A stretch of 62,082 bases of DNA from a virus (IMGVR_UViG_3300006893_000280:1-62082), one strand, 5' to 3'. Shown: positions 674-58,318, counted from the stretch's first letter. Translations and numbers: made by a program. The notes: generated by a model not told the origin, from the sequence alone.

Positions 674-813
674 GGGTGGTTCCTCTCGTTGTCGGGGTGG
701 CGGCCCCGGCGATCTATGCATCGCTGAATGTACCCTGCGATGTACGTAATTTGGTACCTAATTCAGCTCATCATTATGTGACGATTGACACGTGAATGGT
801 CTATCATCCCTGC

Positions 814-842
814 TTGTTACGTACATATCTCGTATGTATGTT
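814..842 (+). promoter_or_regulatory. Putative SigA-type promoter with inverted repeat
   Basis: TTGTTA-N17-TATGTT; TACATA/TATGTA inverted repeat in spacer; ATGTACGTA near 740 is inverted at 818-826. Confidence 0.45.
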
Positions 843-941
843 GATTATGTACGACGCATCGGGGCCGCCACCCCAGCCAAGTACCGACCACCCACCCAAG
901 CGCGACCGCCGCCACGGCCGCGCCCCGCGAAAGGAACCACC

Positions 942-1658
942 ATGACCCAGGCCCATACCGCCCGGCACGACATGCTCGACAAGGTCCGCAAACTTCTCGC
1001 AAAGGCCGAAAATGTCGCAGGCACACCCGAGGCGGATGTCCTCAACGCCAAGGCATTCGAGCTGATCGCCAAGTATGGCATCGACGAGACCGCAGCCCGC
1101 GAGCGCAACGGCGAGGGCCCCGCCCCGATCGAGATCGCACGGTTCGCGATCAGCGGTCAATACCAACGTGAGCAGTCGTTCCTACTTCACATCCTGTCCA
1201 GGGCATTGCACTGCAAACCGTTGATGCTGGACGGTAACGAGAGCCACGTCGTATACGGCACGGCCGGGCACATCGAGCGGCTGCGCGTCCTGTTCGCGAC
1301 TCTGATGCCGCAGATGCTTGCCGGAGCCTCCCGTGTCCGCCCCCATTACGGGGCACAGGTCGGCGTCAAGGCGTACCGCATGTCGTGGATGCGGGGCTTC
1401 TACCTCGAAGTCGGTTCCCGCCTGGAGGAGGCCGAGGGGACCGCGGCGAAGGAGTCCGAGCCCGGCACCGCGCTGGTGTTGATGGATGACGCCAAGCGCG
1501 CTGAGGCCGCCCTGCAGGCCGACCATGGCGGCCAGATGCGCGACGTCACGTCGCGCTCACGCCACGACGGCAGCGCCGCCGCTGCTGGCGCCGCTGCCGG
1601 ACAGCGCGTGAACCTCGGGCAGACCGGCGTTACCGGCCGACGCACCCTCGGCCGGTAA
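942..1658 (+). CDS. DUF2786-domain protein
   Basis: N-terminal MLDKVRKLLAKAE..GTPEA...KAFELIAKYGID signature; RBS GAAAGGAACCACC at 929. Confidence 0.8.
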   Translation: MTQAHTARHDMLDKVRKLLAKAENVAGTPEADVLNAKAFELIAKYGIDETAARERNGEGPAPIEIARFAISGQYQREQSFLLHILSRALHCKPLMLDGNESHVVYGTAGHIERLRVLFATLMPQMLAGASRVRPHYGAQVGVKAYRMSWMRGFYLEVGSRLEEAEGTAAKESEPGTALVLMDDAKRAEAALQADHGGQMRDVTSRSRHDGSAAAAGAAAGQRVNLGQTGVTGRRTLGR

Positions 1659-1747
1659 CCCCTCCAGCACCCACCCAGGCCGGGCCTGCACGTCAGGCCC
1701 GGCCATCCATCACGGGGCCGCCACCCCGCACCGAAAGGAACCACGTC

Positions 1748-3406
1748 ATGAGCGCGTTCGCGCCCACCGCCGAGCAGCTGCACATCCACCACCTGTTCAA
1801 GACCGGACAGCCCATCCGAATTCGCGCAGGAGCAGGCACCGGTAAGACCACCACCCTCACCCAGCTCGCAGAAATCGTTCAGTCCCAAGGGCGCGCCGGC
1901 CTGTACATCGCCTTCAACCGGTCCATCGCCAATGAGGCGGAAACCAAGTTCCCCGAGTGCATCTCGGCGTCGACCGCGCACGCTCTCGCCTACCGGAACA
2001 TCGGCCAGACCCGGCACGCTCCCCTGTTGAACAGGATGCGCCGAGGTGCGCGCATCCCGATCGGCGAGACCGGCCGACTCTTGAACGTCGATCGGTTCGT
2101 CGCGTACGTGGGTGGCGAGACCTTCACACTCACCGAGTACGAGGTCACCCGGCACGCGCTCGCCGCTGTCGACCGGTTCTGCAAGAGCGCGGACCCGGAG
2201 CTGACCAAACGGCACATCGCCCGGATTCCCGGCATGGACGATCGGGACCTGCACGGCCAGCTGGTCGAGTTCGTCTACCCGGTCGCACAAGCTATTTGGG
2301 CCGATCTGCAAGACCCCTACGGCAGCGCAGTGGCGTTCGGGCATCCCCACTACCTGAAGTTGTTCGCGCTGGAACGGCCGAAGGTCGGCCCAGATGGCGG
2401 TGTCGTGTTTCTCGACGAGGCACAGGATACGAGCCCCGTCCTCGCGGGCATCATCGACGACCAAGTGCATTTGCAGTTGGTCGCAGTCGGCGACCCGGCC
2501 CAGGCCATATACGGATTCACCGGCGCGACCGACTACATGACGCAGGCCAGTAGTGCTATCGAGGGGCGCTTGACGCAGTCGTGGCGATTCGGCCAGCCGG
2601 TCGCGGACGCAGCGAACACGTTGCTTACCCGCCTCGGCGACGACCTGCGTCTGACCGGCAACCCCGGCCGGGCCAGCGTCGTCGATCACGCCGCGAGTGG
2701 ACTACGCGTCACCCTGGCCCGGACGAACGCCACCGCGATCGAGCACGTGATGGCTGCCCAGACGGCCGGACGGCGTGTGCACCTCATGGGCGACAACCGG
2801 TACGCCGTCCAGTTCTGCTTCGACGCCGCCCTGCTGATGAACGAGAACCGCTCGGCGTCGAAGAAACCGCGCCTCGCCGACCTCGCGGCGTTTCGCACCT
2901 GGGATCAAGTTGTCGAGCACGCCAACGACTCGACCGACTCCGCCGACTGGAAAGTGCTCGTGACGTTGATCGTCAAGCACGGCACCGCGAAGGTGCGCGC
3001 GGCACTGGGCGGCGTCGTGAACGAGCACGACGCCGACGTGATCGTGGCAACCGCCCACAAGGCCAAGGGCCGCGAATGGGACAGCGTGCACCTCGCATCG
3101 GACCTGGCCGACGCCGTCGAATCCGCGGCCGAAGCCATTCAGCAGTCCGAAGCGTGGATCCGTGACGAAGGCCGGTTGAGGTTCACCCCTGCGGGCGAGG
3201 AAGTGCCGAAGCACGTGCACGACTGGCGGGTACGGCGCTCCAACGACGGCCAGACTCCAGATGAAGCGTTGCGCCGCAGCCAGAAACGACTCAAGGACGA
3301 GCTGATGCTGGCGTACGTCGCCGCGACCCGAGCTCGGAGCCTCCTCAACCCCGGTGGCCTGATCGCCGCCAGCACGACGACCGAGCAGCAGAGTGACGGC
3401 CTATAG
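1748..3406 (+). CDS. UvrD/REP-like superfamily 1 helicase
   Basis: Walker A AGAGTGKTT, LDEAQD, VGDPAQAIYGF, LTQSWRFG, TAHKAKGREW, LAYVAATRA. Confidence 0.92.
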   Translation: MSAFAPTAEQLHIHHLFKTGQPIRIRAGAGTGKTTTLTQLAEIVQSQGRAGLYIAFNRSIANEAETKFPECISASTAHALAYRNIGQTRHAPLLNRMRRGARIPIGETGRLLNVDRFVAYVGGETFTLTEYEVTRHALAAVDRFCKSADPELTKRHIARIPGMDDRDLHGQLVEFVYPVAQAIWADLQDPYGSAVAFGHPHYLKLFALERPKVGPDGGVVFLDEAQDTSPVLAGIIDDQVHLQLVAVGDPAQAIYGFTGATDYMTQASSAIEGRLTQSWRFGQPVADAANTLLTRLGDDLRLTGNPGRASVVDHAASGLRVTLARTNATAIEHVMAAQTAGRRVHLMGDNRYAVQFCFDAALLMNENRSASKKPRLADLAAFRTWDQVVEHANDSTDSADWKVLVTLIVKHGTAKVRAALGGVVNEHDADVIVATAHKAKGREWDSVHLASDLADAVESAAEAIQQSEAWIRDEGRLRFTPAGEEVPKHVHDWRVRRSNDGQTPDEALRRSQKRLKDELMLAYVAATRARSLLNPGGLIAASTTTEQQSDGL

Positions 3407-3458
3407 TCCCAGTCGGCCGCGTACAGTCGCGGTATGCACCGACGAGAGGGCCCTATGG

Positions 3459-3674
3459 ATGAGCGCGACCGACCCTGACACCTGGTGGACCGCGCAGCAG
3501 TGCGCCGACTACATCGACGTCAAGCCGCGCACCTGGCACGGATATGTCAAACGGCCGACCAAGACCAACCCAGCGCCCCAGCCGATCAAGAAGATCGGTA
3601 GCACTCCGGTTTGGGACAGCGAAGAGGTCATCGCCTGGAACGAGTCGCGGCCCGGAGACCCGATCAACGCATAG
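3459..3674 (+). CDS. Small AlpA/excisionase-like HTH protein
   Basis: WWTAQQCADYIDVKPRTWHGY...PAPQP...PVWDSEEV; start uncertain (3393/3459). Confidence 0.65.
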   Translation: MSATDPDTWWTAQQCADYIDVKPRTWHGYVKRPTKTNPAPQPIKKIGSTPVWDSEEVIAWNESRPGDPINA

Positions 3675-3712
3675 AGCTGGCCGCCACCAGCGCCCCCGAA
3701 AGGAACCACCCG

Positions 3713-4498
3713 ATGCTCACCGCTGCCCGCACGGCCGCCGCAGGGACCATCCTCATCGCAGCCCTGTCGTCGGTGCTGTCGTTCGCCGCACTCAGCGACG
3801 TAGCCCGTCGCTCCGGAGTCGGCATCCCAGTCCTGTGGCCGATGATTGTCGACGGCCTGATCCTCGTCGCCACCTTCGCCGTCGTCGCCGTCCAAGGCTC
3901 CGCGTACGCATGGATGATGCTCGGGTCCGGCGCAGCCGTCTCGATCGCTGGCAACATCCTCGACGCGGTCACCCCTGAAGGGCCGATGCCCAGCCAGATC
4001 GCCGCCGTCGTCGCAGCGGTCCCGCCCGTCGCTCTGGTCGCCGTGACGCACCTGACCGTCCACCTTGCGCGTCATGCGTCAGTGACGCGTCATGCCACGA
4101 CACCGACAGATAGTGCCGCGCAATGGGATTCTGCCGAACCGCTGGCGCCCCTGGCGTATGAGCCCGCGGAGCAGTGGCCGGCTGCATACCCCAGCGCGCC
4201 GAGCGTCACACCCTGGCACCGGAACGACGCGATAGCCGATGCATGGTCGTGCCGCGATGACGTGGAAGTTGTTGCGCCCGCGCCGGTCGTCGAGGAACGC
4301 TACGAGGACCCCGACACCGGCGAGTTGCCCGTCCTGGCCGACCCAGTACGCGGACCGCGTGATGTCGCGGAGGAATTGATATGCAACACCGACCTGTCCA
4401 ACTATGCTGTCGCCGAGCGCGTCGGCAAGTCGGAGGCAACTATTCGACGGTGGCGCAAGGTCATTGAAGACGACCGGGTTGAGCAGCGCACGGCCTGA
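3713..4498 (+). CDS. DUF2637-like membrane protein with C-terminal HTH
   Basis: LSFAALSDVA...LWPMIVDGLILVAT...SIAGNI...VPPVAL; C-terminal SNYAVAERVGKSEATIRRW. Confidence 0.75.
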   Translation: MLTAARTAAAGTILIAALSSVLSFAALSDVARRSGVGIPVLWPMIVDGLILVATFAVVAVQGSAYAWMMLGSGAAVSIAGNILDAVTPEGPMPSQIAAVVAAVPPVALVAVTHLTVHLARHASVTRHATTPTDSAAQWDSAEPLAPLAYEPAEQWPAAYPSAPSVTPWHRNDAIADAWSCRDDVEVVAPAPVVEERYEDPDTGELPVLADPVRGPRDVAEELICNTDLSNYAVAERVGKSEATIRRWRKVIEDDRVEQRTA

Positions 4499-4980
4499 TC
4501 CACTTTGCAAGTCGCTGGCGCAGTCGGCCGGGCCTCGTCCGCGAACTCGGCCGCTCAGCTGGCCTGTTCGATCAGCGCGGTACGCGGGCTCTTTTGACAC
4601 GAGCATGGAGGGGCAGACCGGGCGGATACGGTCCGGAGCCGACGTGCGGTCCCTTCTCCATAGGGGCGGTATGACGGTACGGCAACAACACACGCGTGAT
4701 CTACATTCCGGTGCGACTCGATGCCCGCTCCCGGTAGCGTTGGGAGCAACGCAGTATGCCTACGTCTCATCCCGTGTCAGTCGGGGATCCGTACTGGCTC
4801 GGCAGCTTTCGCTTTACGTGTGCTCGGTGAGGAGTGGATCAGATGCCAGACTCGGTCTCAACACCAGTCGATGATGTCTGGCGTCCCCGCCCGAGATCGA
4901 ACACATCAGTGCAGGATGCGAGTTACCCGGAGTGTGTAGAGATTCTGATACGGGGCGACCATCGGATCGGATCGATATAG

Positions 4981-6399
4981 ATGGAGACGGAGAGCGACGA
5001 CATCTTGCGCTACATCAGAACTTTTCAGCAGGCTGAGCAGAATGCTGTTGTACGCATGAAGGAGTTGGGGTTCAGCGACGCGCACCTGACGGTATCTGGG
5101 GCGGACAGTGGTATCGACATCGAATCGTCGCAGTCAGTAGCCCAGGTTAAATGGACGGGAGCTGCCGCCGGGCGGCCCGAGATGCAGAAACTCTTCGGTG
5201 CGCGGGGTATTCGAAATCATTTACAGATGTTCTTCTTTGCGGCATCTGGATATAGCCAACCTGCCATTGTCTATGCCGACGAAGTTGAGATCCGTCTGTT
5301 TGCATTCGATCCGATCGGGCAGATCGAACCTGCGAATTCCGTGGCGCGTTTATTCGTAAAGGAGCTCCAACGGAAGAGAAAAGCTGAGCGTGTGGCAAGT
5401 GAACGCGCTGAAGCCGAACGTGTGGCAAGTGAACGTGCCGAGGCCGAACGTGTGGCAAGTGAACGTGCCGAGGCCGAACGCGTGGCAAGTGAACGTGCCG
5501 AGGCCGAACGCGTGGCAAGTGAACGTGCGGAGGCTGAACGCATCGAAAACGAACGCGCCGAGGCTAAGAGACAGCCGTGGCCGGTGACTGTCGGAGAATT
5601 GACTGCACAGGTAGACAACTTTTCCCCCCTGAGCTTACCCGTTCCTGTGGTCGGCATGAATTCGGTGCAGCCGCCGATCGCAGACCCCAAGCTCCAGATT
5701 GCTAGTTCAGGGCGATCAATGATGGTAGATAGCCCTCAAACCGCCGGACGCAAATTTGTTGTCGCTAGCCTGTTTGTCGTCGTGATTCTATGTGTGCTTG
5801 GCGATGCGTTTATGGCATTATTTTTTGTTGCTGGGATATTCGTCACCAGCCACGAAGTCAGTGTGGCCAGCATCGTTGTTTTGGTCATGTGTCTTGCAAT
5901 TATTGGGTTGCTTGCGTTCATCGCTAGTCGATGCATGCGGAGGCTTAGGGTCCTAAGATGGCACGCTTCCGAATCCTCACTGCTAGTTGCGAACTCGCAG
6001 GGGTATGCCTCATATTTTCCGCGGTGTGCCCCGACGCTTGGAGATCGCCGAGCAAGAAGTATGCTACGCAGACTAAGAAATGTCCTTGAGCCCGGCGAGA
6101 TGCTTTGGGTATTCGCAAGTCCGAATAGCACGCATCCTCTTATGAACGGTTTGGCTGTAACGAATAATCGGATATTGGCCTTCTTAGTTCATAGGCTTTC
6201 AGTCGAAGGTCCGAGAATAGTTGTATATGCAGAAGACATTAGCCGTATAGATTTTAGTGATACCAAAATCGGAATGAAGGAGATGGTCGTCACTACTCAC
6301 TCAGGCGAATCGAAATCGTTTGGGAGACTAGATCATGGCGATGTCAGGTTTATTGCGTATTATGCGAACTATCTTGGCGCAACAAGGTCGCCGAACTGA
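4981..6399 (+). CDS. Mrr-like restriction endonuclease domain fused to coiled-coil repeat, 2 TM helices and a C-terminal domain (moron)
   Basis: AEQNA..RMKELGF..A..T..GADSGIDI....AQVK...G.PEMQKL.G...FFAASGYS..A Mrr_cat pattern; visibly lower GC; opposite strand to tail genes. Confidence 0.75.
   Translation: METESDDILRYIRTFQQAEQNAVVRMKELGFSDAHLTVSGADSGIDIESSQSVAQVKWTGAAAGRPEMQKLFGARGIRNHLQMFFFAASGYSQPAIVYADEVEIRLFAFDPIGQIEPANSVARLFVKELQRKRKAERVASERAEAERVASERAEAERVASERAEAERVASERAEAERVASERAEAERIENERAEAKRQPWPVTVGELTAQVDNFSPLSLPVPVVGMNSVQPPIADPKLQIASSGRSMMVDSPQTAGRKFVVASLFVVVILCVLGDAFMALFFVAGIFVTSHEVSVASIVVLVMCLAIIGLLAFIASRCMRRLRVLRWHASESSLLVANSQGYASYFPRCAPTLGDRRARSMLRRLRNVLEPGEMLWVFASPNSTHPLMNGLAVTNNRILAFLVHRLSVEGPRIVVYAEDISRIDFSDTKIGMKEMVVTTHSGESKSFGRLDHGDVRFIAYYANYLGATRSPN
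5383..5565 (+). repeat. 30-bp tandem repeat x6 encoding AERVASERAE
   Basis: GAACGTGCCGAGGCCGAACG(T/C)GTGGCAAGT-type units read directly; last unit degenerate. Confidence 0.95.
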
Positions 6400-7124
6400 G
6401 TAATACGCTGCGTGCGGGCCTCGAATCGGTCGATGGCCGGGGAGTTGTACTGCTGCTGGAACAACGGGTAGTTGCCGGTGAGCGCGATCTTGAACGCGCG
6501 GTGCGCGGCATCCATCTTGGATTCGTTGGCCGAGTCGGGCCACGAGGTGATGACCGCCTGGGTATCTAGGCGGACCACCGAGAATGTGCGGCCCACTGCC
6601 CGGAACTCAAGGTCGACGTCGAGCGGGTAGGTCCCCCCGAGGCCGCGTGGGGTCTGCGTCCCGCCGATCATGGTCATGATCCGGGCCTTGCCTCCCATGA
6701 AGACCGCCCAGACACCATCGTTGGTCGAGGCATCATCGGTGCAGCGCAACGCAACGATCGTTTCGTTGTTGTCGGCCAAGGCGTATGGAGTGGGTGCAGT
6801 CAGCCGGAACCCGACTACCACGTCGTCCTGCGGAGCGACGACGTCGGTAGGGCGGTACCAGAACGCCACCTTGCCCGTCGTTCCCATGGCAGCGAGCACG
6901 ATGTGACCGTCGGCTACACGGCCCTTCACGCCGGAGATGTACGCCCAGGCCGGGCCGAGCGAATCGGGATAGGCGGTGTTGAACTCGTAGACGAACCCGA
7001 AGGGCGGGACCGCCGCGCTGAAGACCTTCTTCCAGGCTGAGCCGTTCCACACCCACCCTTCCCTCACCTTCCGCCCGCCAGCGCTCAGCGTCTCGATCTT
7101 CTGCGAGCCGACATAGAGGGGCAT
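6369..7124 (-). CDS. Minor tail protein (beta-rich, possible receptor binding)
   Basis: Follows tail fibre; N-terminal LYVGSQKI...WVWNGSAWKKVF typical of tail proteins. Confidence 0.65.
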   Translation of the reverse strand: MPLYVGSQKIETLSAGGRKVREGWVWNGSAWKKVFSAAVPPFGFVYEFNTAYPDSLGPAWAYISGVKGRVADGHIVLAAMGTTGKVAFWYRPTDVVAPQDDVVVGFRLTAPTPYALADNNETIVALRCTDDASTNDGVWAVFMGGKARIMTMIGGTQTPRGLGGTYPLDVDLEFRAVGRTFSVVRLDTQAVITSWPDSANESKMDAAHRAFKIALTGNYPLFQQQYNSPAIDRFEARTQRITQFGDLVAPR

Positions 7125-46882: not shown

Positions 46883-46889
46883 GTCCGGC

Positions 46890-50178: not shown

Positions 50179-50209
50179 GGGTGGTTCCTCTCGGGTTGGT
50201 GGAGAAGGA

Positions 50210-50689: not shown

Positions 50690-50692
50690 AGG

Positions 50693-50992: not shown

Positions 50993-51240
50993 CGATTGAC
51001 CCCCGGCACGGGCAGGAAATCGCGGCTGGCGAGTCGCTCGATGGCCGTATCGGTCTGGCGCATCGGCTCGGTGACTGCACCGTCGTACTCCTGGCGGATG
51101 ACCGTGAGATACGCGCGGGCGGTGTCGTTCTCGGGCTCGATGCGATCGACGCGTAGCCAGCGGGTGTTGCTGTCGCGGCGGTCGCGGAACACGTCGCCGA
51201 CGGAGATGGTCAGGCCCTTGCGAGTGGTGTACTCGTTCAC
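50989..51240 (-). CDS. Small SH3-like hypothetical protein
   Basis: VGDVFRD...R.LRV.RI; coupled. Confidence 0.5.
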   Translation of the reverse strand: MNEYTTRKGLTISVGDVFRDRRDSNTRWLRVDRIEPENDTARAYLTVIRQEYDGAVTEPMRQTDTAIERLASRDFLPVPGVNR

Positions 51241-51524
51241 AGCAGGTCCCATTCGTAGTCGCGGGCGGTGTCGGTGAAGTGGTCGCTGGCATCCGCGCCG
51301 TAGATGGCTTCCAGGGCGGCGATCCGCTCGTCGGACGGCTCGGTGTCGATGCAGTCGGAGCATTCGCAAGCCGCGGGCTCGTTGTCCGGGTTCGTGCACC
51401 ATGCGCAGTCGCACTCGGGGCCGCTGGTGAGCTGGTCGGGGTGGCAGGTGGGGCAATCGCCGTAGTCGTCGCAGAAGTGGTGTGCGCCGATATCGGCTGT
51501 GGCGTCGACGAATTCGCCGATCAT
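51237..51524 (-). CDS. Cys/Asp-rich small protein
   Basis: CPTC, CDCAWC, CECSDC; strong RBS motif. Confidence 0.55.
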   Translation of the reverse strand: MIGEFVDATADIGAHHFCDDYGDCPTCHPDQLTSGPECDCAWCTNPDNEPAACECSDCIDTEPSDERIAALEAIYGADASDHFTDTARDYEWDLL

Positions 51525-51585
51525 GGTGGTTCCTTTCGGCGGCCGGGGCGGGGGCTGGCGGACCCATGCGCCCCGGCGCGGATGG

Positions 51586-52101
51586 TTACGCGGGGTTGTC
51601 GAGGTGGAACGAGAGGCGGCGCGCTGCGGCGTCGATGGCGGCATCGTTCTCGTCGAGGAACTTCGTGCGCTCGACCTGAAGTTCGATGATCTGATCCTGC
51701 GCGCGGCGAACCTTGGCCTCCCACAACGCATGTGGCGTGTGCAGCTTGGCCAACACGTCGGCAAAGAGGGCTTCGAGCTTGTCTCGGGCGGCCGGGGTTG
51801 CGCAGTCGTCCCACTTGCCATCCGACTTCCGCACCCACCAGGCCGCGTGGCTGCCGGGCCGGTTGGTGCAGCCCTTCGCGGCCTCGACCATCAGATCGAC
51901 GCTGGCGTTGTAATCGACTCGGTTGGTGCACAGTCTGGGGCCGCTGATCCTGAGGACCCATCCTGCGGCGCTGCTGTTGTGCTGCTTATCGCGCCATTGG
52001 TAGGTGGCCTCGAATCGTCCGGATACCGGACCTTCGGCGAGGTAGATGCGGTGGCTCTCGGAGGTGGTTTCGCCTGTGTCGGTGAATTTCTGGCTGGTCA
52101 T
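51586..52101 (-). CDS. Hypothetical protein
   Basis: RBS GAAAGGAACCACC-ATG; C-terminal coiled coil. Confidence 0.65.
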   Translation of the reverse strand: MTSQKFTDTGETTSESHRIYLAEGPVSGRFEATYQWRDKQHNSSAAGWVLRISGPRLCTNRVDYNASVDLMVEAAKGCTNRPGSHAAWWVRKSDGKWDDCATPAARDKLEALFADVLAKLHTPHALWEAKVRRAQDQIIELQVERTKFLDENDAAIDAAARRLSFHLDNPA

Positions 52102-52292
52102 GGTGGTTCCTTTCGTGCCCGGTGGCGGCCGGGCTGGGTGGTTGATCGTGGCGGCGGTTAGCGGGCGATGATGACCGTGTGTTCGCCGCTGTTGTTGCAG
52201 TGGCGGCAGCCGTTGCCGTTACAGAGCTGGCACAGCGCCCAATGCGTGTCGGCGATTGCTGGTTCCTTCGGGTGTTGTGACCGTGGCGGCGG

Positions 52293-52445
52293 TCAGGCTG
52301 CGTCGTCGGCCATGTCGAGCAGGTCGCGCTCGTACTCGTGGCCTTCGTCGTCGATGTTGAACAGGAGCCCGAGCGGCTGCTGTGGCCGTTTGGTGGTGCG
52401 GAGCGCCGCCCGCAGATGGCGGCGCTTCCTATCGAGGTCGGTCAC
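52293..52445 (-). CDS. Small hypothetical protein (50 aa)
   Basis: GTGA-coupled ORF VTDLDRKRRHLRAALR...DAA. Confidence 0.4.
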   Translation of the reverse strand: MTDLDRKRRHLRAALRTTKRPQQPLGLLFNIDDEGHEYERDLLDMADDAA

Positions 52446-52783
52446 AGGCCGGCGGGCTGACGCGGGGCAGCGTCAAACCTGGCGTTGAGGTCCCACGCCA
52501 GGTCCTCATCCTGATACGCCTCGAGGGCGGCGCATGCTTCGGCGAGCTTGCGGCTCAGGTACTTTCCGTCCTCGTCAGTGCGGTTTTCGGCGATGATGCG
52601 CTGCCCCTCGGCGACGCTGTGGAACTCACCCACATGGATGGTCGCAGCGATCGGCCAGCCGCCCTCGACGAATCCGGCGACCTTCTCGCTCGGGACGATG
52701 AGGATGTCGCCGTCGGCGATGTATGGGCCGTACTGGGCGTGGTCGTATGCCTCACCGGTGGAGGCGAATACGTGAATGCTCAT
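52442..52783 (-). CDS. Hypothetical protein
   Basis: F.ST.EAYD..Q....I.DGD.L...E...G...WP.A.T...GEFH; RBS AGGAG. Confidence 0.65.
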   Translation of the reverse strand: MSIHVFASTGEAYDHAQYGPYIADGDILIVPSEKVAGFVEGGWPIAATIHVGEFHSVAEGQRIIAENRTDEDGKYLSRKLAEACAALEAYQDEDLAWDLNARFDAAPRQPAGL

Positions 52784-52930
52784 GGGTTTGCTCCTGGTGG
52801 GTGGTTGAACCTCCCCGGTCGATGGCGGTCGACCGGGGAGGTGACTGGTTCCTTTCGGATCCCGGTGGCGGCCGGGATATGTTGCAGTGCACGGGCTTTC
52901 GATTCATGTCCGTGCGGTGCAACCGGGATG

Positions 52931-52960
52931 ACACTAGCCTGCACGTTGTGCGGCCGTCAA
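52931..52960 (-). promoter_or_regulatory. SigA-type promoter
   Basis: TTGACG-N18-TAGTGT on - strand, upstream of structured leader. Confidence 0.65.
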
Positions 52961-53079
52961 GTCATACTACGCGATACTGCGCACTACCTGCGGTGATGTC
53001 GAAATTTGTCACAACATACCCCCTAACTAGGTGCAATGTGTGACAGAAGGAAATCTCGCGCAATGCTTGCAACCATATC

Positions 53080-53170
53080 ACTACGCGTCACTGCGCACAC
53101 GTGCTCTTGCGTACACGCGTACTCGCGCACACGCGTGTGACCGCACACGCGTACCCGCGCACACACGCGT
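53080..53170. repeat. About 16-bp periodic CACACGCGT repeats (iteron-like)
   Basis: ACGCGT at 53083, 53115, 53131, 53147, 53165 and ACGTGC at 53099. Confidence 0.75.
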
Positions 53171-53219
53171 GGTGCCACACGGCCTCGCGCCCGACCTCGA
53201 ACGCGGCACACCGTGCCAC

Positions 53220-53720
53220 TCACTTCGCGCCACGCCCGCCGTGCTGGTCGGTAGAACTCATCCGGAGCTGGCGGAGAATGCCGTCCAGATCGCCCGAGAA
53301 CGCGCGAACAGGGTTTGGGCCGGACATCGCCCCATCCGACCCGTCGACAACCCGCCTGCGGCGTGACAGTGGCTTCCGAGGCTCGTGTGTTCGGGTAGCC
53401 GACTCGAACAACGCCCGCGCAGCCGCTCGGGCCTTCTCCGACGCGGGCGGTGCCGCTGGTAGTTCCGGCCGGTATTCCGGCGCGTATCCCGGAGCCCTTG
53501 CTGCTGAACGGATTCGGGCGGTGACGTGTCCGGGCATGAGCCGCTCGGTCTGCTCGGCGTAGTGGGCGCGGATCGCCTCGGCGGCCTCGTCCGGGGTCCA
53601 GCGTGCCCGCCTGGCGGCGTCGAGCCACGAATCGACCATGAGGCCGTCGATGTTGCGGGAGTCGTAGCTCTGGGCGAGCTGGAGCAGGGCGACCACGGTG
53701 TCTCGGGGATCGCTGGACAC
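53220..53720 (-). CDS. Replicative helicase loader/inhibitor-like protein
   Basis: LL..A..YD.R......W......A..AIRAHY.....LMP; follows initiator. Confidence 0.6.
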   Translation of the reverse strand: MSSDPRDTVVALLQLAQSYDSRNIDGLMVDSWLDAARRARWTPDEAAEAIRAHYAEQTERLMPGHVTARIRSAARAPGYAPEYRPELPAAPPASEKARAAARALFESATRTHEPRKPLSRRRRVVDGSDGAMSGPNPVRAFSGDLDGILRQLRMSSTDQHGGRGAK

Positions 53721-53729
53721 GGGAGCCTC

Positions 53730-54620
53730 CTAGGCAGTGATTGCGCGGGACGAGCCGAGATTCGACAGCGTGCCTTGCAGATTGGCAGACGGTGGGACGG
53801 GAAGGCCTGCGGCGCGCAGGATCTCCGGGTTCGGATTCGACTTCAGCGCTTCGGCTTGGGCGAACTTCATCTCGGCGGGGGTGAGCTGGCGGCCGTTCGG
53901 CATGACCGGGCGTTCCGCGGCTGCCGGGCGGCGGGTCTCCGAGGCGCGGCGAATCCAGTTGCGCCAGGTGGCTGTCCAGTCGGCGCGCCGCTCGCCCTTG
54001 CTGAGCCAGTAGTCGGCGAACTTGCGGTGCTCGGCTTCCACGTCGACGGCGGGGCATTCGGCGCGCATGGCGTCGATGACGGCCCGGTCTGGCATCCAAC
54101 CGTGAGGGAGCGCGGTCGCGCGCTTTTTGCGCGACTCTCTAACTACTTCGTTAGAAGTAGTTGGTACGGGACGGGTCGGGTGTTCAACGGGCGCTGCTTC
54201 GTTTGTGCTTGGCACGATGCTCAGCCTCGGCGAAGCATCATGCTTCGTGTTCGGTTCGCTGTTCGGTTCGTTCAACTCTCCCCTTCTGGACTGCCCGGAC
54301 CGCCTCCCACCTGCGCGGCCTGCTTCGCGGAGCCGCTCGCGCCGCGCCTCGACATCAGCCTTGGACGGGTTGAATTTCGACCAGTTTTTGAACGAAAAGT
54401 CGCCGTTGTCGTGCTCGTGCCACAACCCGATTTCGACCAACTCCCGAGCGATTTTCGGTCGGATTCCGAGCATTTTCTGTGCGTTTTTCGATACGACGCC
54501 GTCGGTGAGCTGGTCCGCGCAGTAGCTTCCGGCGGTCGTCCAGACCCCAATTGCGGCGAAGCTCGCGCCGAGTCTTTCCGGGCTGGACCAGAACTTGTCG
54601 TCGACCTTGAACCAGGTCAT
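53730..54620 (-). CDS. Replication initiator protein
   Basis: MTWFKVDDKFWSSP..AIGVW..AGSY..QLTDG; C-terminal FADYW...DWTATWRNWIRRA. Confidence 0.78.
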   Translation of the reverse strand: MTWFKVDDKFWSSPERLGASFAAIGVWTTAGSYCADQLTDGVVSKNAQKMLGIRPKIARELVEIGLWHEHDNGDFSFKNWSKFNPSKADVEARRERLREAGRAGGRRSGQSRRGELNEPNSEPNTKHDASPRLSIVPSTNEAAPVEHPTRPVPTTSNEVVRESRKKRATALPHGWMPDRAVIDAMRAECPAVDVEAEHRKFADYWLSKGERRADWTATWRNWIRRASETRRPAAAERPVMPNGRQLTPAEMKFAQAEALKSNPNPEILRAAGLPVPPSANLQGTLSNLGSSRAITA

Positions 54621-54865
54621 GCCGCGTACTCGCTTTCGGTGGGGTGGTTCGGGCGAAGGAAGATCGAGTTGCGGGGACGGGCGGCGGTGAACAACGTCCA
54701 CTGAGTGCGCGCGGCGATCTCCCAATCGGTGAATCCGTCGGCGACCAGCTGGCGGACCAGTAGGCGACGGTCGTGCGGCGTGAGGACTTCGGCGGGCAGA
54801 TCGCCGGCCTCGACTCTCGTATAGGTGGTTGGTTGTTCTGCTTTATAACGGGCGGGAATGGTCAT
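54617..54865 (-). CDS. Small HTH protein
   Basis: VRQLVADGFTDWEIAART. Confidence 0.55.
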   Translation of the reverse strand: MTIPARYKAEQPTTYTRVEAGDLPAEVLTPHDRRLLVRQLVADGFTDWEIAARTQWTLFTAARPRNSIFLRPNHPTESEYAA

Positions 54866-54959
54866 TGTGGTGTGCCTGAAGTGTTTTCGGCGCGCTGCGG
54901 CGCGTGTGTGGCGGACCGTACGCCGCCCCGGTGACATGGCCGGGGCGGCGTACCGGCGG

Positions 54960-55184
54960 TTATGCCGCTGAGCTGTAGTGCTCGTGGCGGGTGACATCAC
55001 CGGCGCGAACCACCTGGGGCAGATGCCCGATATGGAACATGCCGTCGACCCGTGTGCATGGGTAGGCGTTCATTCGGCGGCCGGGGACCTGCCCGCACAT
55101 CTTCCGTGCGGCCTTGCGGCTCGGGTATGCCCGCTTCTCACAGGCCGGGCACCAGGTCCACGCGCGATAGTCATTGCCGCTCAT
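54960..55184 (-). CDS. Small Zn-finger protein
   Basis: CPACEKRAY.SRK.AR...AYPC....FHIGH. Confidence 0.6.
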   Translation of the reverse strand: MSGNDYRAWTWCPACEKRAYPSRKAARKMCGQVPGRRMNAYPCTRVDGMFHIGHLPQVVRAGDVTRHEHYSSAA

Positions 55185-55492
55185 GACGTGCACCTTTCGG
55201 CGGTGTGCCGATCGAACCGTTCTACCAGCCGGTCGATGGCTGCGCGGCCCAGGGCTGCCTCTGCCTCGACCTGCCGGTCCGGGGTGGTGTCGAGGTACAT
55301 GCCGGTGAACAGGTGGGCATCGACGACCACGACCGTGCCGCGCCCGAACAGTCGCGGACGGTTCTGGCGCCGCTTTCGCGCAGACTCGTTGTGGGCTTCG
55401 CGGCACCACTCGCACGGCTGCTCGGCGCGGCGGTAGTGCCGGTAGTATCCGGCATCGGTGCCGCAATTCAAGTGCACGAACGGCGTTTTCAT
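55181..55492 (-). CDS. Small Zn-binding protein
   Basis: CGT.AGY.RH.R..E.PC..CR.A. Confidence 0.6.
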   Translation of the reverse strand: MKTPFVHLNCGTDAGYYRHYRRAEQPCEWCREAHNESARKRRQNRPRLFGRGTVVVVDAHLFTGMYLDTTPDRQVEAEAALGRAAIDRLVERFDRHTAERCTS

Positions 55493-56571
55493 GCCGCTAC
55501 TCCGAGGGTGGCGACTCTCGCCTGAGCCTTGGCGCGGATCTCGTCGCACAGGGCTGCGGGCAGGTCCCCGGCGGACTTCCACACCGCCTGCAGGTCTTCG
55601 CGACTCACAGATTCGACCTCGATAGCGGCTCGCATGGCGGCGGCCCGCTGCTCGTCCTCTTCGGTGAGTGGGCGGGCCGTCTTGCGGCTCACGGCGGCCC
55701 GTGCCCGATCAGCCACTGACGGCGGGCCAGCTGCGGGAGTCTGCGGAGCGGAATCGGTCTCGACCGAGCCAGGGGTGAGCTGCACGTAGTCGCGGGCCTG
55801 CGCGGTGGTCGGGTCGCACTTCAACACGTCGAAAATCAGCCATTCGAGGGTGAATGACGGCGCAGGGACGGGCTTGTCGACGCCGGGGCGGACACCGGCG
55901 TGCACCGAGCGGACACCGATCACACGGGGCGCGGCGTCGCGGGACAGCCGCACCCATGCGGACGCGTCGAATGCTAGGTTCTTGTGTCCCTCGACCTTGT
56001 ACTCCTTGGTGTTCGGGATCGGCTTGCCCTGGTTGTCCAGTGCCGCGACCTCTTTGCCGCGTGCGGTCGCGACGACGACGCCGGGGAACGTCATGAGCAG
56101 CCGCATCATGCGGCCGTGCCGCTCGGCGGCGTCGTTCCACAGATTCATGGCCGGTTTGATCTCGGCGTCCGGGTCGTCTTTGAGGAGTTTCTGTGCGTAC
56201 TTGGAGCGGCGGGCACGGTCGGAGACCATGTCCTTCAACAGCTCCCACTCGGCGGTCATGGAGTCGATAAGCAGGGCTACGGGAAGCTCGCCGGCCTGGG
56301 CCGCCTCGGCGGCAATGGTGTGCACTTCGGTGAGCTGGTTGTAGATGTCGCGGAACGTGCCGTCGTGCTCGATCACCTCGTAGTCCGCGCCGGGGATGGC
56401 GGCGTACTCGTCGGCCGCGCCCTCGGCGAGGTCGAGCCAGAACGCTCGTCCGATGCGGGCGCTGGTGGTGAGTTCAGCCATTGCCCAGGACTTTCCGGTC
56501 TTCTCGCCGCCCTCCACGAGGATGAATGGCCAGGGTGTCCTGCCGGTGGGCTTGCGGGTTTTGAGGGGCAT
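55489..56571 (-). CDS. AAA ATPase, Sak4-like recombination protein
   Basis: EGGEKTGKS Walker A, LLIDSMT Walker B; next to YqaJ exonuclease. Confidence 0.8.
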   Translation of the reverse strand: MPLKTRKPTGRTPWPFILVEGGEKTGKSWAMAELTTSARIGRAFWLDLAEGAADEYAAIPGADYEVIEHDGTFRDIYNQLTEVHTIAAEAAQAGELPVALLIDSMTAEWELLKDMVSDRARRSKYAQKLLKDDPDAEIKPAMNLWNDAAERHGRMMRLLMTFPGVVVATARGKEVAALDNQGKPIPNTKEYKVEGHKNLAFDASAWVRLSRDAAPRVIGVRSVHAGVRPGVDKPVPAPSFTLEWLIFDVLKCDPTTAQARDYVQLTPGSVETDSAPQTPAAGPPSVADRARAAVSRKTARPLTEEDEQRAAAMRAAIEVESVSREDLQAVWKSAGDLPAALCDEIRAKAQARVATLGVAA

Positions 56572-57503
56572 TACTTGGTTCCTTCCGGAGTGGGCGGCAA
56601 CGTGGCGGCGTGCCAATCAATGGGCTTGCGGAACTTATAAAGGGCCACAGCATTTTTCGTGGATTGGCGGGTGGCGACGGTCTGGGCGTTCTTGCCGTGA
56701 CCGACTACGGCGCGGCGGGTGTTGCCCATGACGCGCAGCATCTTGGATCGGGCCAGGTTCAGGGCTTCGTCTGCGTCGTCCGCGCCGTGAACGGCGGCCT
56801 CGAATTCGCGGGCCAACTCGACCGATATCTGCCAGTCGTAGTCGCGCTCGATGTCGCGGTGAGCGCGCCGGATGGCGTTGTAGGTTTCGCCGTGCCCGTC
56901 GACCTCCGGCGGCTGCCCGTCCGGGTCTGTTGCGCTGCGGTAGAACTCGGCGCAATGGGCCTCGATCGCTGCCGCGAGGTCGGGGTCGTAGGGGATGAGG
57001 TATTCGGTCTCGTCGTAGAACGGGCCGAGGCACACCACGTACGTTCGCCGCAGGCCTGACATGTGCATCTGCCACTGGACTTGCAGGAAATACCCGAGGG
57101 GGATTTCTGCGGAGCCCGCAGGCCCCCATTGGTAGTCGCCGCGCCCGTCGGTCTTGGCCTCGATGCCGAACGTCTCGCCGGTGCGATCGTTGGCGGCGAT
57201 ATCGTCTGGGTTGGCGGCGGCCCACGCTTCAAGGCCGGTTCGGGTGAATGTCTTTGTCCCGCATTGGCGTAGCTCGGGGTGGCGACGAAAGAACCGGCGG
57301 AGAATGATCTCCTCGAAGTCCTGGCCGCGCTCGGTGGCTTCATTCGGCCCGTCGGGGTCGATCTCGCCGCGCAGCAGGTGCCATTCCTTGGTGGGGGAGC
57401 TGTACTTGCTGGCGTCGAAGATGCCGGGGATCTTGGATGCGGTGATCTTGCGTGACCACCGGACGCTACCGGGCTCCAGCGCCGCGACCTCGACGCCGGT
57501 CAT
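56571..57503 (-). CDS. YqaJ-like (lambda-exo/RecE-type) exonuclease
   Basis: W...ITASKI, SKY.SP, G..FE, AANPD, IEAKT, Y..QVQWQM. Confidence 0.9.
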   Translation of the reverse strand: MTGVEVAALEPGSVRWSRKITASKIPGIFDASKYSSPTKEWHLLRGEIDPDGPNEATERGQDFEEIILRRFFRRHPELRQCGTKTFTRTGLEAWAAANPDDIAANDRTGETFGIEAKTDGRGDYQWGPAGSAEIPLGYFLQVQWQMHMSGLRRTYVVCLGPFYDETEYLIPYDPDLAAAIEAHCAEFYRSATDPDGQPPEVDGHGETYNAIRRAHRDIERDYDWQISVELAREFEAAVHGADDADEALNLARSKMLRVMGNTRRAVVGHGKNAQTVATRQSTKNAVALYKFRKPIDWHAATLPPTPEGTK

Positions 57504-57628
57504 CCGAGCAGTCCCACGCGGGCCAGCCATACGATGCCGATGCACGTCACGGCCAGCGCGGCTGCGAGCGCGGCGATGACCAGGTGGGCGATGCTGATGG
57601 ACAACGCTTCTCGGCTGCGGTCGCTCAT
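57500..57628 (-). CDS. Small membrane protein (42 aa)
   Basis: ISIAHLVIAALAAALAVTCIGIVWL; coupled both sides. Confidence 0.5.
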   Translation of the reverse strand: MSDRSREALSISIAHLVIAALAAALAVTCIGIVWLARVGLLG

Positions 57629-57903
57629 GCTGCGACTGCCAGTAGCGTCGCCAGCGCGGCGAGCTGATCGAGTGCCTTGTTAATGGCGTCGACCGGCTCG
57701 CGGGCCTCGAGGATCATCCAGGTGACGTCACCGGCGGTGGACGTCCCAGGGAGCCCGACGTACTCCTCCGGGAGGTGGACAGTGACCTCGAATCCGAAGG
57801 ATCTGCTGGTCAGGCACCACAGTGGGACACTGCCGATGACCTGCGGTGCACGCTCGTCCAGCTCGGCGATGGCGTCGGTGAGGATGCTATGGTTGACGGG
57901 CAT
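57625..57903 (-). CDS. Hypothetical protein
   Basis: RBS motif and CCGCCA hairpin upstream. Confidence 0.55.
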   Translation of the reverse strand: MPVNHSILTDAIAELDERAPQVIGSVPLWCLTSRSFGFEVTVHLPEEYVGLPGTSTAGDVTWMILEAREPVDAINKALDQLAALATLLAVAA

Positions 57904-58009
57904 CTGGTGGGTGGTTCCTTTCGGGTGCACTAGGCCGACACTGTTTTTCTCTTGGCGGAGAGGTGTCGGCCGCCCCCGTATCCGGGGGCTTTTCCGGTGT
58001 GAGCGTTGG

Positions 58010-58240
58010 TTAGGCGCTCAGCGGTTCCCATGGGCTCGCCTGGAGCCACACGTCGACATCGGCGGGTCGGATTCGCTTGGAGCGGCCGTCGCCGCCGGGG
58101 GCGCAGGCGGGGAGGTTGCCTGCGGCGATCTGCCGGTCGATGAACGGGTAGCTGAATCCGGTGATGTCGGCGACTTCTTGGACGGTCAGGGCCAGGCGCT
58201 GATTCAGCGGGATGAGGTGGCGTTCAGCCTTCTTGGACAC
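58010..58240 (-). CDS. Excisionase/Cro-like HTH protein
   Basis: LTVQEVADITGFS...I...I.AG.L......RI...DVD.WL; first gene divergent from repressor. Confidence 0.8.
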   Translation of the reverse strand: MSKKAERHLIPLNQRLALTVQEVADITGFSYPFIDRQIAAGNLPACAPGGDGRSKRIRPADVDVWLQASPWEPLSA

Positions 58241-58318
58241 GGGTGGTTCCCTTTCGGTCGTGCGTGGCGGCGCACGGTGTGGCGTAATCGTCATCCCCAA
58301 TGTTTCGATGACATGAAG

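Follow-up and report, generated by a model that had tools for sequence, protein, structure and literature searches.

What does a phage gain from carrying the same six-nucleotide loop, on stems that differ from copy to copy, in front of many of its genes? The first-pass annotation of this virus sequence (the window, meaning the whole 62,082-nt stretch of DNA analysed) had described about 15 stem-loops that share a CCGCCA loop while their stems differ and still pair. All 15 were located at their annotated positions, and the family lies well beyond chance. When a stem of at least 4 Watson-Crick pairs was required, hairpins formed at 13 of the 110 occurrences of CCGCCA, by far the commonest hexaloop of the window; the runner-up among all hexamers formed 4. 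Against these 13, 300 dinucleotide-preserving shuffles of the window gave 0.32 ± 0.56 CCGCCA hairpins with a maximum of 2, and all 13 lay among the 31 intergenic occurrences whereas the 79 coding occurrences had none. Ten related phage regions contained 87 hairpins at 804 occurrences of CCGCCA, while any other NNGCCA hexamer gave at most 7. The number of distinct inner 4-bp stems found around the loop was 21.

Thirteen copies in the window have a perfect stem of at least 4 bp (marked perfect below); the thirteenth, at 30518-30533, is additional to those annotated. Three further copies pair only via G-U or a mismatch: 47328-47347 and 51552-51565 depend on G-U pairs, as the annotation had it, and 900-923 contains one A·C. 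There is an additional imperfect copy at 56596-56614, and the copy at 52141-52162 scores poorly in the covariance model (8.5 bits, E 0.87). A covariance model trained on 49 copies detected 18 window sites at E<0.01, every one on the strand of the adjacent downstream gene. Genes were taken from an uncurated map built by codon-usage gene calling with PHROG and Pfam scans. The sites are as follows.

674-711, - strand: perfect hairpin 693-708 (CGGGG/CCCCG, loop CCGCCA; 42.5 bits), then start module GAGAGGAACCACCC-ATG of gene 398-673 (RelE-like toxin, PHROG 1213).
857-890, + strand: perfect hairpin 861-874 (GGGG/CCCC; 16.9 bits), upstream member of a tandem pair before gene 942-1658, without its own start module.
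900-941, + strand: imperfect 9-bp hairpin 900-923 (one A·C mismatch; 33.4 bits), then GAAAGGAACCACC-ATG of gene 942-1658 (PHROG 421, function unknown).
1710-1747, + strand: perfect hairpin 1713-1728 and start module of gene 1748-3406 (DNA helicase).
3673-3712, + strand: perfect hairpin 3676-3691 (GCTGG/CCAGC; 50.2 bits), beginning 1 nt past the upstream stop codon, then start module of gene 3713-4498 (Xis-like, PHROG 733).
30518-30533, + strand: perfect hairpin.
43594-43631, - strand: perfect hairpin 43613-43628 (GTCGA/TCGAC) and GAGGAACCACCCG-ATG of gene 43126-43593 (RusA-like).
47292-47348, - strand: hairpin 47328-47347 (7 pairs including 2 G-U) and AAAGAACCACC of gene 46890-47291.
49609-49645, - strand: perfect hairpin 49628-49641 (GCGC/GCGC) and GAAAGGACCGAACCAC-ATG of gene 49153-49608.
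51525-51579, - strand: two-tier hairpin whose inner stem (51552-51565) closes with a U·G pair, outer stem about 51543-51579, then GAAAGGAACCACC-ATG of gene 51237-51524.
52102-52136, - strand: perfect hairpin 52117-52134 (GCCCGG/CCGGGC) and GAAAGGAACCACC-ATG of gene 51586-52101.
52257-52297, - strand: perfect hairpin 52278-52295 (TGACCG/CGGTCA, the family's commonest stem), then GAAGGAACC, which no start codon follows in this phage; the hairpin's counterpart in relatives is the upstream member of a tandem pair.
52784-52842, - strand: perfect 14-bp hairpin 52809-52842, immediately before gene 52442-52783 with its GGAG-type ribosome-binding site.
52843-52879, - strand: perfect 7-bp hairpin 52859-52878 (44.4 bits) and GAAAGGAACCAG, in tandem with the 14-bp hairpin.
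56573-56617, - strand: imperfect hairpin 56596-56614 inside the 3' end of the upstream, RecE-like gene (20.6 bits; perfect 5-bp stem in the N. acidivorans counterpart), then GGAAGGAACCAAGTA-ATG of gene 55489-56571 (RecA-like, AAA_24).
57904-57971, - strand: two-tier hairpin 57933-57971 (outer 9 bp; inner perfect stem 57949-57962, CTCT/AGAG; loop 57953-57958), then GAAAGGAACCACCCACCAG-ATG of gene 57625-57903 (92 aa).
58241-58278, - strand: perfect hairpin 58259-58276 (CGTGCG/CGCACG), then GAAAGGGAACCACCC-GTG of gene 58010-58240 (HTH_17).

Several further statements of the first-pass annotation were borne out. The outer 9-bp stem reported around 57949-57962 spans 57933-57971. Orientation tracks gene direction on both strands: all copies lie in the sense strand of the gene they precede, and each follows its own gene even between divergent neighbours about 150 nt apart. 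Copies were said to be missing before virion structural genes, and the virion gene block 6369-29988 is free of covariance-model sites at E<0.01; a weak model match in the terS leader (17 bits) was rejected as a loop copy, its CCGCCA lying beside another hairpin and outside any loop. The start module is present at 12 of 48 non-structural genes and at 0 of 26 late genes. No virion gene is preceded by a copy. The label of early genes is too strict, and non-structural describes the set better, as it includes the RelE-like toxin gene and the left-end helicase/Xis-like module. The hairpin-preceded genes are distributed over several transcription units on both strands. The HTH_17 gene is the first of the leftward early operon, and its hairpin lies, as judged by eye, about 40 nt into the 5' UTR.

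Most copies had also been placed a few nucleotides before a GAAAGGAACC-type ribosome-binding site, and indeed the hairpin is mostly found 2-9 nt upstream of a module with the consensus CCGAAAGGAACCACC-ATG, whose GAAAGGA is complementary to the 3' end of 16S rRNA. In six prophage regions this start module occurs within 45 nt downstream of 69 of 95 hairpins; the other 26 include upstream members of tandems, hairpins ahead of GGAG-type sites, and others that probably reflect chance or coding sequence. From loop to start codon the median distance is 25 nt, with 23-24 nt in 25 of 63 copies; the start codon is ATG in 57 of 63, and the first G of CCGAAAGGAACCA(C/A)C lies 13-15 nt before it in 43 of 63. 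Intercistronic copies begin 1-10 nt past the upstream stop codon. No second conserved motif besides the start module was seen around the copies.

Pairing around a constant loop extends to related phages. Five related Nocardia prophages have the same loop at syntenic sites, with stems that differ by compensating changes. For the two-tier hairpin of the 92-aa gene, compared in 8 phages at sites chosen by synteny and not by pairing, 98.1% of the cells of the 13 pairs counted are paired and both sides have changed at 9 of 13; none of 500 shuffles matched the observed values, and slid registers were only 33-47% paired. Stems also differ among orthologues elsewhere, as before the HTH_17, RusA and helicase genes and others. 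A covariation count over the 49 paralogous copies is circular, since pairing was the ground for choosing them. Sister phages have the loop variants CUGCCA, UUGCCA and U-GCCA-G; GCCA is retained in all of them, which fits a partner that reads sequence.

Multi-copy matches to the covariance model were obtained in only 4 of 121 sampled Nocardia genomes, and 96 of the 121 gave none. In G002 and G004, where prophage limits were mapped, the matches lie within the prophage, barring one weak match; a host repeat of REP/MITE type, with conserved palindromic arms scattered over the chromosome, was rejected on this confinement of the strong matches and on the variable arms. In other genomes of the family, no model match at E<=1e-5 was found in 150 (151 searched, the one with matches being the N. 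acidivorans genome). Rfam 15, which includes the actinobacterial 6C RNA with its C-rich loops, gave 0 matches at gathering thresholds over the whole window and, in 51400-58400 at E<=5, nothing beyond sub-threshold noise. None of the RNA runs searched for the sequence contains it. The family is real, selected for pairing and for loop sequence, linked to strand and to start sites, absent from virion genes and confined to one prophage lineage.

In 11 of 11 native contexts the minimum-energy RNA fold contains the hairpin with its loop open, and the ribosome-binding site and AUG are mostly unpaired. Folding z-scores range from -5.2, for the tandem pair with the 14-bp hairpin 52809-52842, to +1.05; the single hairpins are short and most contexts fold no better than shuffles. 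The annotation had taken the copies dependent on G-U pairs as an argument for RNA. This argument is weak, since allowing A·C rescues nearly as many copies (12) as allowing G-U (18; 2 versus 5 among copies with a start module), and the mismatch asymmetry does not separate RNA from DNA. The U·G closing pair before gene 51237-51524 is kept in 4 orthologues and becomes a C·A mismatch on the opposite strand. A kissing-loop role, also raised in the annotation, is unlikely, since the sole complementary loop, UGGCGG in the late-operon leader, is exact in just 3 of 6 prophages. Intrinsic terminators, G+C-rich hairpins with a U tract behind them, were rejected as well: no CCGCCA hairpin is among the 7 terminator-like sites of 43000-58600, T is found in just 2-7 of 69 copies at any one of the 8 positions that follow the stem, and there are no U tracts.

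We propose, with moderate confidence, that the hairpin is a cis-acting RNA stem-loop in a start-associated module, acting on translation initiation or mRNA fate, with a loop read by a putative factor; that it acts as RNA, that it affects translation and that it has a partner are what we infer. The stem-loop would work in the sense transcript as the upstream half of a composite start module, which runs from a C/A-rich flank through a stem of 4-15 bp of free sequence and the CCGCCA hexaloop (core GCCA) to a C-rich spacer of 2-9 nt, then GAAAGGAACCA(C/A)C and ATG. The predicted hairpin leaves the GAAAGGA site single-stranded and would hold up its loop at a median of 25 nt before the start codon, roughly where the 30S binding site has its 5' edge. 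Such a module could jointly set translation initiation on about 15 non-structural genes, and with it the fate of their mRNAs, the invariant loop being read by a putative sequence-specific partner, which could be a ribosome component or a protein of phage or host. A more specific version, which we put forward only tentatively, is that the hairpins are RNA operators of a lineage-specific post-transcriptional regulon, in which a factor reads a YYGCCA loop and switches about 15 genes together. The loop, some 23-25 nt before the start codon, would then turn translation on or off jointly, and sister phages would have re-tuned it (CUGCCA, U-GCCA-G).

The hairpins might instead be passive RNA structures without a specific partner, shielding cistrons from RNases and keeping upstream sequence from pairing with the ribosome-binding site: placed near the 5' end or between cistrons, a stem-loop would block 5'-end-dependent RNases for the downstream cistron or 3' exonucleases for the upstream one, and the loop would be maintained for folding reasons or by descent. 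The hairpins do directly adjoin an unpaired ribosome-binding site, their flanks are C/A-rich and G-poor, and our search for a loop-binding partner found none, its one candidate being a 50-aa Arg-rich protein that is missing from G120. Moreover, of the 9 start-associated sequences listed for Microbacterium phage AnnaSerena, 4 have, by eye, an inverted repeat immediately before them; the loops of these repeats are mutually unrelated, and a hairpin next to starts of this kind may thus be a common arrangement. However, passive protection needs no invariant hexaloop, and here the loop is identical in 87 hairpins while the stems vary freely, stays constant among phages that share just 55-90% protein identity, and is altered as a set in sister phages. 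The spacing, too, is fixed relative to the start codon and not to the upstream stop codon. We consider this explanation unlikely.

The same 50-aa protein (gene 52293-52445, - strand) is what could make the hairpins boxB-like sites, bound by it on nascent RNA for antitermination, in the manner of the arginine-rich motif/boxB pairing of lambda N and nut, which makes RNA polymerase resistant to termination. Its conserved N-terminus (RxRRxxAALR) and C-terminus (FNIDDEGHEY..DLLDL), its presence in all six prophages and L021/G064 (7 phages), the position of its gene within the densest hairpin cluster and a large terminator-like hairpin ahead of the late operon all speak for this. Yet its gene lies about 6 kb into the operon, G120 has three hairpin-bearing prophages and no match to the protein family, and each genome has about 15 sites, set at a fixed distance from start codons, in place of one per operon, preceding genes in separate, divergent units that include a toxin-antitoxin gene. 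With no boxA-like partner motif seen, no U tracts in the hairpins and 0 of 7 terminator-like sites in 43000-58600 coinciding with a CCGCCA hairpin, we regard antitermination as quite improbable. Least probable, by a little, is an element acting at the DNA level, in which inverted repeats would extrude in single-stranded or supercoiled DNA for a recombination, replication or nicking protein, for example as joints for module exchange via the RecE/RecA-like system. The phage does encode RecE-like and RecA-like proteins, A·C mismatches and G·U pairs occur with similar frequency, modules flank gene cassettes present or absent between genomes, and about a quarter of the BLAST segment ends listed fall, by eye, within 30 nt of a module. 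This coincidence is not specific, since mosaic joints occur at gene boundaries anyway and nearly every gap here has a module. Against a DNA role, orientation flips with each gene even within 150 nt, which replication or packaging does not explain, the ribosome-binding site and start codon follow at closely kept distances, and the conserved U·G closing pair folds on the sense strand only.

The proposed start-associated RNA stem-loop can be compared with several known systems. Lambda N/boxB has about 2 copies, one site per early operon near the promoter with an adjacent boxA. It shares with our proposed element a short stem-loop whose loop and not stem would be the recognised part, a location in the sense transcript of early operons and an Arg-rich protein encoded nearby; it differs in that about 15 copies are found here versus about 2, tied to start codons, with no boxA seen and no homology. 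A nut layout of one site per operon was rejected for the 16-18 sites here, which are mostly intercistronic. T4 RegA sites and the Mu Com/mom hairpin are phage translational operators. By analogy, they resemble the mode proposed here, a factor that would work on a set of phage mRNAs at their ribosome-binding sites or beside them, but share no sequence or protein homology with it. Stoperators are 13-bp double-stranded DNA repressor sites that require no flanking complementarity; they are likewise numerous, asymmetric, placed in short intergenic gaps and oriented with transcription, whereas the flanking complementarity here covaries. Those of cluster A mycobacteriophages are mentioned in PMC3203893.

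In cluster EF Microbacterium phages (AnnaSerena; Jacobs-Sera et al. 2020, PMC7302621), the available text likewise places an element immediately upstream of the start-associated sequence (SAS), and by eye a stem-loop lies directly before the SAS at several AnnaSerena sites. In contrast to our hairpins, these stem-loops have no common loop, and the GTAGAG-centred upstream element looks promoter-like (TAGCGAA ... TAGAGT/TATAGT). Of the EF consensus GGGAAAGGACCCC, as given in the available text, only the GAAAGGA core is shared with the module here.

Closest are the SAS/ESAS start-associated modules of cluster K mycobacteriophages, as described in the accessible parts of PMC3203893 (2011), PMC11373665 (Adephagia) and PMC12699233 (a survey of 188 genomes). 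Mycobacteriophages, Henu3 included, also have relatives of this prophage's RecA-like gene (about 59% identical); PMC12699233 lists Henu3 as subcluster K4. Apart from its consensus (GGGATAGGAGCCC in the cluster K text consulted, CCGAAAGGAACCACC here), the module agrees with the definition of a SAS, an asymmetric and highly conserved motif, about 13 nt long, that takes the position of the ribosome-binding site a few nt before the start codon, mostly ATG, of a subset of genes. In both systems, as far as the accessible parts of PMC3203893 go, 11-19 copies per genome precede non-structural genes only, in one orientation, and are missing from the host chromosome. A second element lies just upstream at about half of the cluster K sites; this ESAS is a pair of imperfect, sequence-conserved 17-bp inverted repeats with a variable spacer (PMC3203893). 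It contains SigA-like -35 and -10 hexamers; its authors reported no evidence that it pairs as RNA, and a later interpretation makes it a SigA-type promoter plus operator. Here, by contrast, arms that are free in sequence and covary surround an invariant centre, and the gap between hairpin and start codon is too short for a promoter; identity with the cluster K ESAS was rejected on the variable arms (21 inner stems) and on the finding of no sigma-70-like site in 43000-58600. The annotation's claim that no known element has this loop agrees with the Rfam result and with the literature searched, in which we found no description of a hairpin with fixed loop and free stems; as a class, the element is precedented by the SAS/ESAS start-site modules. 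What is new is the hairpin with a fixed loop and free stems, and its closest known kind is SAS/ESAS. If the tentative regulon version of our proposal is right, it would provide the first defined cis-element, with its geometry, for the long-unexplained SAS-type genes of actinobacteriophages.

The window is a complete IMG/VR provirus record of 62,082 bp with 64% G+C, and its genes were mapped with our own codon-usage caller together with PHROG and Pfam scans. The resulting layout is as follows.

1-4498: left-end module, with an antitoxin and a RelE-like toxin on the - strand and a protein of unknown function, a helicase and two Xis-like HTH proteins on the + strand
6369-30416, leftward: virion block, from terS/terL, portal and capsid through the tape measure to minor tail proteins
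About 31-38 kb: island without PHROG matches
58240 down to 38400, leftward: non-structural operon, encoding HTH_17, a RecE-like exonuclease, a RecA-like AAA_24 protein, a replication initiator and SSB, and further MazG, RusA, ParB-like proteins and a methyltransferase
Right end of the window: HTH regulators and a tyrosine integrase

The toxin-antitoxin pair occupies 1-673 (-) at the left end (antitoxin, PHROG 2268; RelE-like toxin, PHROG 1213). The island at 31000-38000 carries genes on both strands with lower coding scores, and its G+C content is 60-61% between 34 and 38 kb; none of the eight island proteins tested matched a PHROG, and no homologues were found in five related prophages. This segment separates the late operon from the early one and probably carries accessory or defence cargo. 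Relatives of the window were found through the RecA-like protein and are Nocardia prophages (from a Nocardia sp. MAG, N. acidivorans, N. panacis, N. bovistercoris, N. testacea and another Nocardia sp.). The isolated-phage collection contained no close relative, and DNA searches returned only short matches of 71-73% identity; in a protein search of isolated phages the RecA-like gene was matched in 152 records. In the one such phage inspected, Gordonia phage Spooky, the annotated early genes for the most part overlap or adjoin, so that intergenic gaps are few.

Every CCGCCA-loop hairpin listed in the first-pass annotation was located in the window, and its observation as a whole was confirmed. 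When all hexamers were ranked as loops, 13 of the 110 occurrences of CCGCCA or its complement were enclosed by a stem of 4 or more Watson-Crick pairs, against 4 for the runner-up hexamer. In 300 dinucleotide-preserving shuffles we obtained 0.32 ± 0.56 such hairpins (maximum 2). The ranking and the shuffles rule out chance or base composition as their source. The hairpins were found at 13 of 31 intergenic CCGCCA occurrences and at none of the 79 coding ones. The same ranking contained a AGTGAACG "loop" signal, which comes from at least five tandem 30-bp repeats at 5398-5550; these lie within ORF 4981-6399 (+, 472 aa, without PHROG match), which probably encodes a repetitive coiled-coil-like protein.

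Pairs of the G-U type complete two further copies (47328-47347 and 51552-51565); these had been put forward as an argument for RNA, and comparison with A-C does not decide between RNA and DNA. The copy at 900-923 has one A·C mismatch, and an imperfect copy (56596-56614) lies within the 3' end of the RecE-like gene. A covariance model of the hairpin plus start motif detected 18 sites with E<0.01 in the window, all of them on the strand of the next gene, in agreement with the proposed orientation; by the same search the copy at 52141-52162 was not credible.

Inspection of the 70 nt preceding each predicted gene showed the hairpin to be one half of a larger module. As had been proposed, it is linked to a ribosome-binding site: it is followed by a short C-rich spacer, the start motif CCGAAAGGAACCA(C/A)C and then the start codon, and this ribosome-binding site makes use of the final bases of 16S rRNA. 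Taken together, the window and five whole relatives contain 702 CCGCCA occurrences; 95 have stems of 4 or more pairs, and for 69 of these 95 the start motif lies within 45 nt downstream. Stems are mostly 4-7 bp long (a few reach 9-15 bp), with 21 distinct sequences among the inner 4-bp stems, and of the closing pairs 44 are G-C, 8 A-U, 7 U-A, 6 C-G and 4 U-G. The spacer between stem and GAAAGGA is mostly 3-6 nt, and the flanks are rich in C/A and poor in G. The median distance from loop end to start codon is 25 nt (23-24 nt in 25 of 63 copies), the start codon being ATG in 57 of the 63. Minimum-energy folds of all 11 native contexts contained the hairpin with its loop open and the RBS and AUG largely unpaired; only a few contexts folded significantly better than shuffles. 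The hairpins do not resemble intrinsic terminators. A separate 11-bp G+C-rich hairpin without a U tract (GGCCGGGCCUG/CAGGCCCGGCC, 1678-1704, +) separates the gene at 942-1658 from the CCGCCA hairpin that precedes the helicase gene, and is kept in N. acidivorans.

Two classes of RBS are in use across the window. Late genes (6369-30416) have GGAG/GAGG cores in 16 of 26 cases and the GAAAGGAACC module in none, compared with 12 of 48 non-structural genes that use it, which bears out the reported absence before virion genes. The interpretation as an early-gene regulon stood in part: the element is a structured, conserved feature of gene starts, but its restriction to early genes did not hold, since the RelE-like toxin gene also bears the hairpin and start module and the module is thus not limited to lytic early genes.

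The covariation expected of a conserved stem was found in the relatives, which have the CCGCCA loop at the same sites with other stems. In the leader of the HTH_17 gene, four phages share CGTGCG/CGCACG, and the stem elsewhere reads GGTGCG/CGCACC, CGCCCG/CGGGCG, GCCCG/CGGGU or GACGUG/CACGU. A synteny alignment of eight phages at the two-tier hairpin before a 92-aa gene comprised 13 pairs with 98.1% of cells paired and changes on both sides at 9 of the 13; these values were reached by none of 500 shuffles, and registers slid by 1-3 columns paired at 33-47%. Among 49 paralogous copies 91.7% of cells were paired versus 52% after shuffling, a count that is circular because the copies were selected for pairing. 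The loop was as invariant as first described: ten related phage regions contained 87 CCGCCA hairpins and at most 7 for each other NNGCCA hexamer. Two more distant relatives each have an altered loop set. In the N. transvalensis sequence the loop is changed as a set, to three CUGCCA loops, and in the other (L023) at least three loops consist of GCCA closed by a U·G pair, ahead of the same GAAAGGAACCAAC start motif; one orthologue in a whole relative (G001) reads UUGCCA. The constant core is therefore GCCA, and loop and start motif are able to vary independently.

The element is a property of the prophage lineage rather than a host repeat, as indicated by the distribution of matches among the sampled genomes. 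Among 121 Nocardia genomes sampled, multiple matches to the model occurred in four (9, 12, 16 and 25), a single weak match in 21 and none in 96; in the two genomes with a mapped prophage, all matches but one weak one were inside it. In a sample of 151 same-family genomes, no match at E<=1e-5 was found outside the N. acidivorans genome. Absence in both samples means not found in the genomes searched. A pattern scan of IMG/VR returned 14 stretches, with several hairpins only in two from one contig, a relative. A look-up of RNA runs listed none containing the sequence. A related Nocardia prophage (L036, contig C12 of G120, a genome with three hairpin-bearing prophages) has another repeated hairpin, TTGCGAGCCC-TCGTAG-GGGC, in four copies within 600 bp (18458-18993).

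Where divergent neighbours are about 150 nt apart, each hairpin still follows the direction of its own gene. This tie to gene direction, the tight distance to the start, the 5' UTR or intercistronic position and the single copy at a coding end point to an action of the hairpin in the sense transcript upon the downstream gene. The loop lies at about -25 to -31 relative to the start codon, near what we take to be the 5' boundary of the 30S footprint, and control of translation initiation was for this reason chosen as the reading. A partner would recognise the loop, and this recognition would control initiation, the fate of the mRNA following from it; we infer the RNA level, the translational effect and the partner from sequence, and give this reading about an even chance. 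That the hairpin is instead a passive protective or insulating structure appears unlikely, as its loop is invariant. Action as DNA, in recombination or replication, is most improbable given the fine-scale orientation with each gene. A boxB-like antitermination site is quite improbable in view of the copy number, the linkage to starts and the hairpin-bearing prophages of G120, which lack the Arg-rich protein described below.

By eye, about a quarter of the ends of homology segments between 38000-60000 plus 1-6500 and the five whole relatives fall within 30 nt of a module, and modules flank cassettes present or absent between genomes (e.g. MazG, 50210-50689). This is compatible with mosaic joints at modules, yet nearly all intergenic gaps of the region hold one. 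A candidate early promoter, TTGCTC-N17-TATGAT, was also seen by eye and places the hairpin about 40 nt into the leader of the first early gene; promoter scans found nothing, including a consensus scan that missed this site. Its surroundings (58300-58440, -) contain a palindrome TGCGCA-N5-TGCGCA in the spacer and more TGCGCA copies upstream, and the segment, between divergent HTH genes (58010-58240 and 58522-58860), is probably an early promoter with repressor operators.

For a partner of the loop, only one gene in the window was suggestive.

52293-52445 (-): gene for a 50-aa protein with a conserved Arg-rich N-terminus and a FNIDDEGHEY..DLLDL C-terminus

The gene sits where the hairpins are most densely clustered, and conserved copies occur in the six prophages and L021/G064. 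The protein had no PHROG or Atlas match; among 1.84 billion proteins it had 8 representatives at E<=0.001, one being a repetitive 858-aa protein, and IMG/VR contained the same relatives only. It occurs in 4 of 121 Nocardia genomes and is missing from G120, where hairpins are present; it is therefore at best a lineage-specific accessory and, as loop partner, a weak lead only. The presence or absence of other early proteins was uninformative because nearly the only gene shared by hairpin-free phages is the RecA-like one. Base-pairing between the loop and rRNA was set aside: in N. acidivorans, 23S rRNA lacks UGGCGG altogether and 16S rRNA contains it at positions 37 and 1111, sites that we take to be in helices 3/4 and the head domain, respectively, off the mRNA path. 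The sole hairpin with the exactly complementary loop UGGCGG is in the late-operon leader (30518-30533, -). This loop is exact in just three of six prophages (the window, G003 and G002) and reads UCGCGG in G001 and CGGCGG in G004 and G005, and kissing was discarded as the main role. The surrounding 600 nt or so upstream of terS (30417-31011, -) are conserved among relatives and contain a long terminator-like G+C-rich hairpin with a T-rich stretch after it, and a conserved run, GGCCGCCCCCGCGCACA, possibly a cos end.

No known RNA family in Rfam matched the element, as the first-pass annotation had anticipated, and we found neither CCGCCA-loop hairpins nor Nocardia prophage start modules described in the literature. 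The closest described kind is the start-associated sequence (SAS) system of actinobacteriophages, first described in 2011 (PMC3203893). The account of cluster K given there reports 11-19 copies of GGGATAGGAGCCC, 3-7 bp before the mostly ATG starts of non-structural genes, about half with an upstream extended element (ESAS), consisting of sequence-conserved 17-bp inverted repeats that its authors judged as not supporting RNA pairing (PMC3203893). For Adephagia, the ESAS has been reinterpreted as a promoter of the SigA type with an inverted repeat (PMC11373665), and a 2025 survey still calls the roles unverified (PMC12699233). For cluster EF Microbacterium phages, GGGAAAGGACCCC is described together with an upstream element whose centre is GTAGAG (PMC7302621). 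By eye, this element looks promoter-like in the EF phage AnnaSerena (MH271292.1, 25640-39185; TAGCGAA ... TAGAGT/TATAGT), and an unrelated stem-loop stands directly upstream of 4 of the 9 listed start sequences. Stem-loops next to SAS-type starts may be a more general arrangement.

The element studied here is real, conserved, lineage-specific, structured and new in form, and makes a candidate for a new Rfam family. About 90 copies in the regions examined, clear covariation, an invariant six-base loop, tight RBS spacing and altered loops in sister phages make the Nocardia prophage lineage an unusually clean SAS-type case. Covariation, fixed loop, spacing and variants make the question testable by mutants, pull-downs and toeprints, and the two halves of the module are separable because loop and start motif vary independently between phages. 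The element matters to phage and RNA biologists because the open SAS question thereby becomes a clean experimental system, and it might serve as a compact expression signal in Nocardia and related actinobacteria. The Nocardia module shares with the SAS its position, copy number, gene class, orientation, ATG bias and absence from the host, whereas its consensus is its own. Its upstream element falls outside the definition of the ESAS: the arms are free in sequence and covary, the centre is fixed, and there is no promoter.
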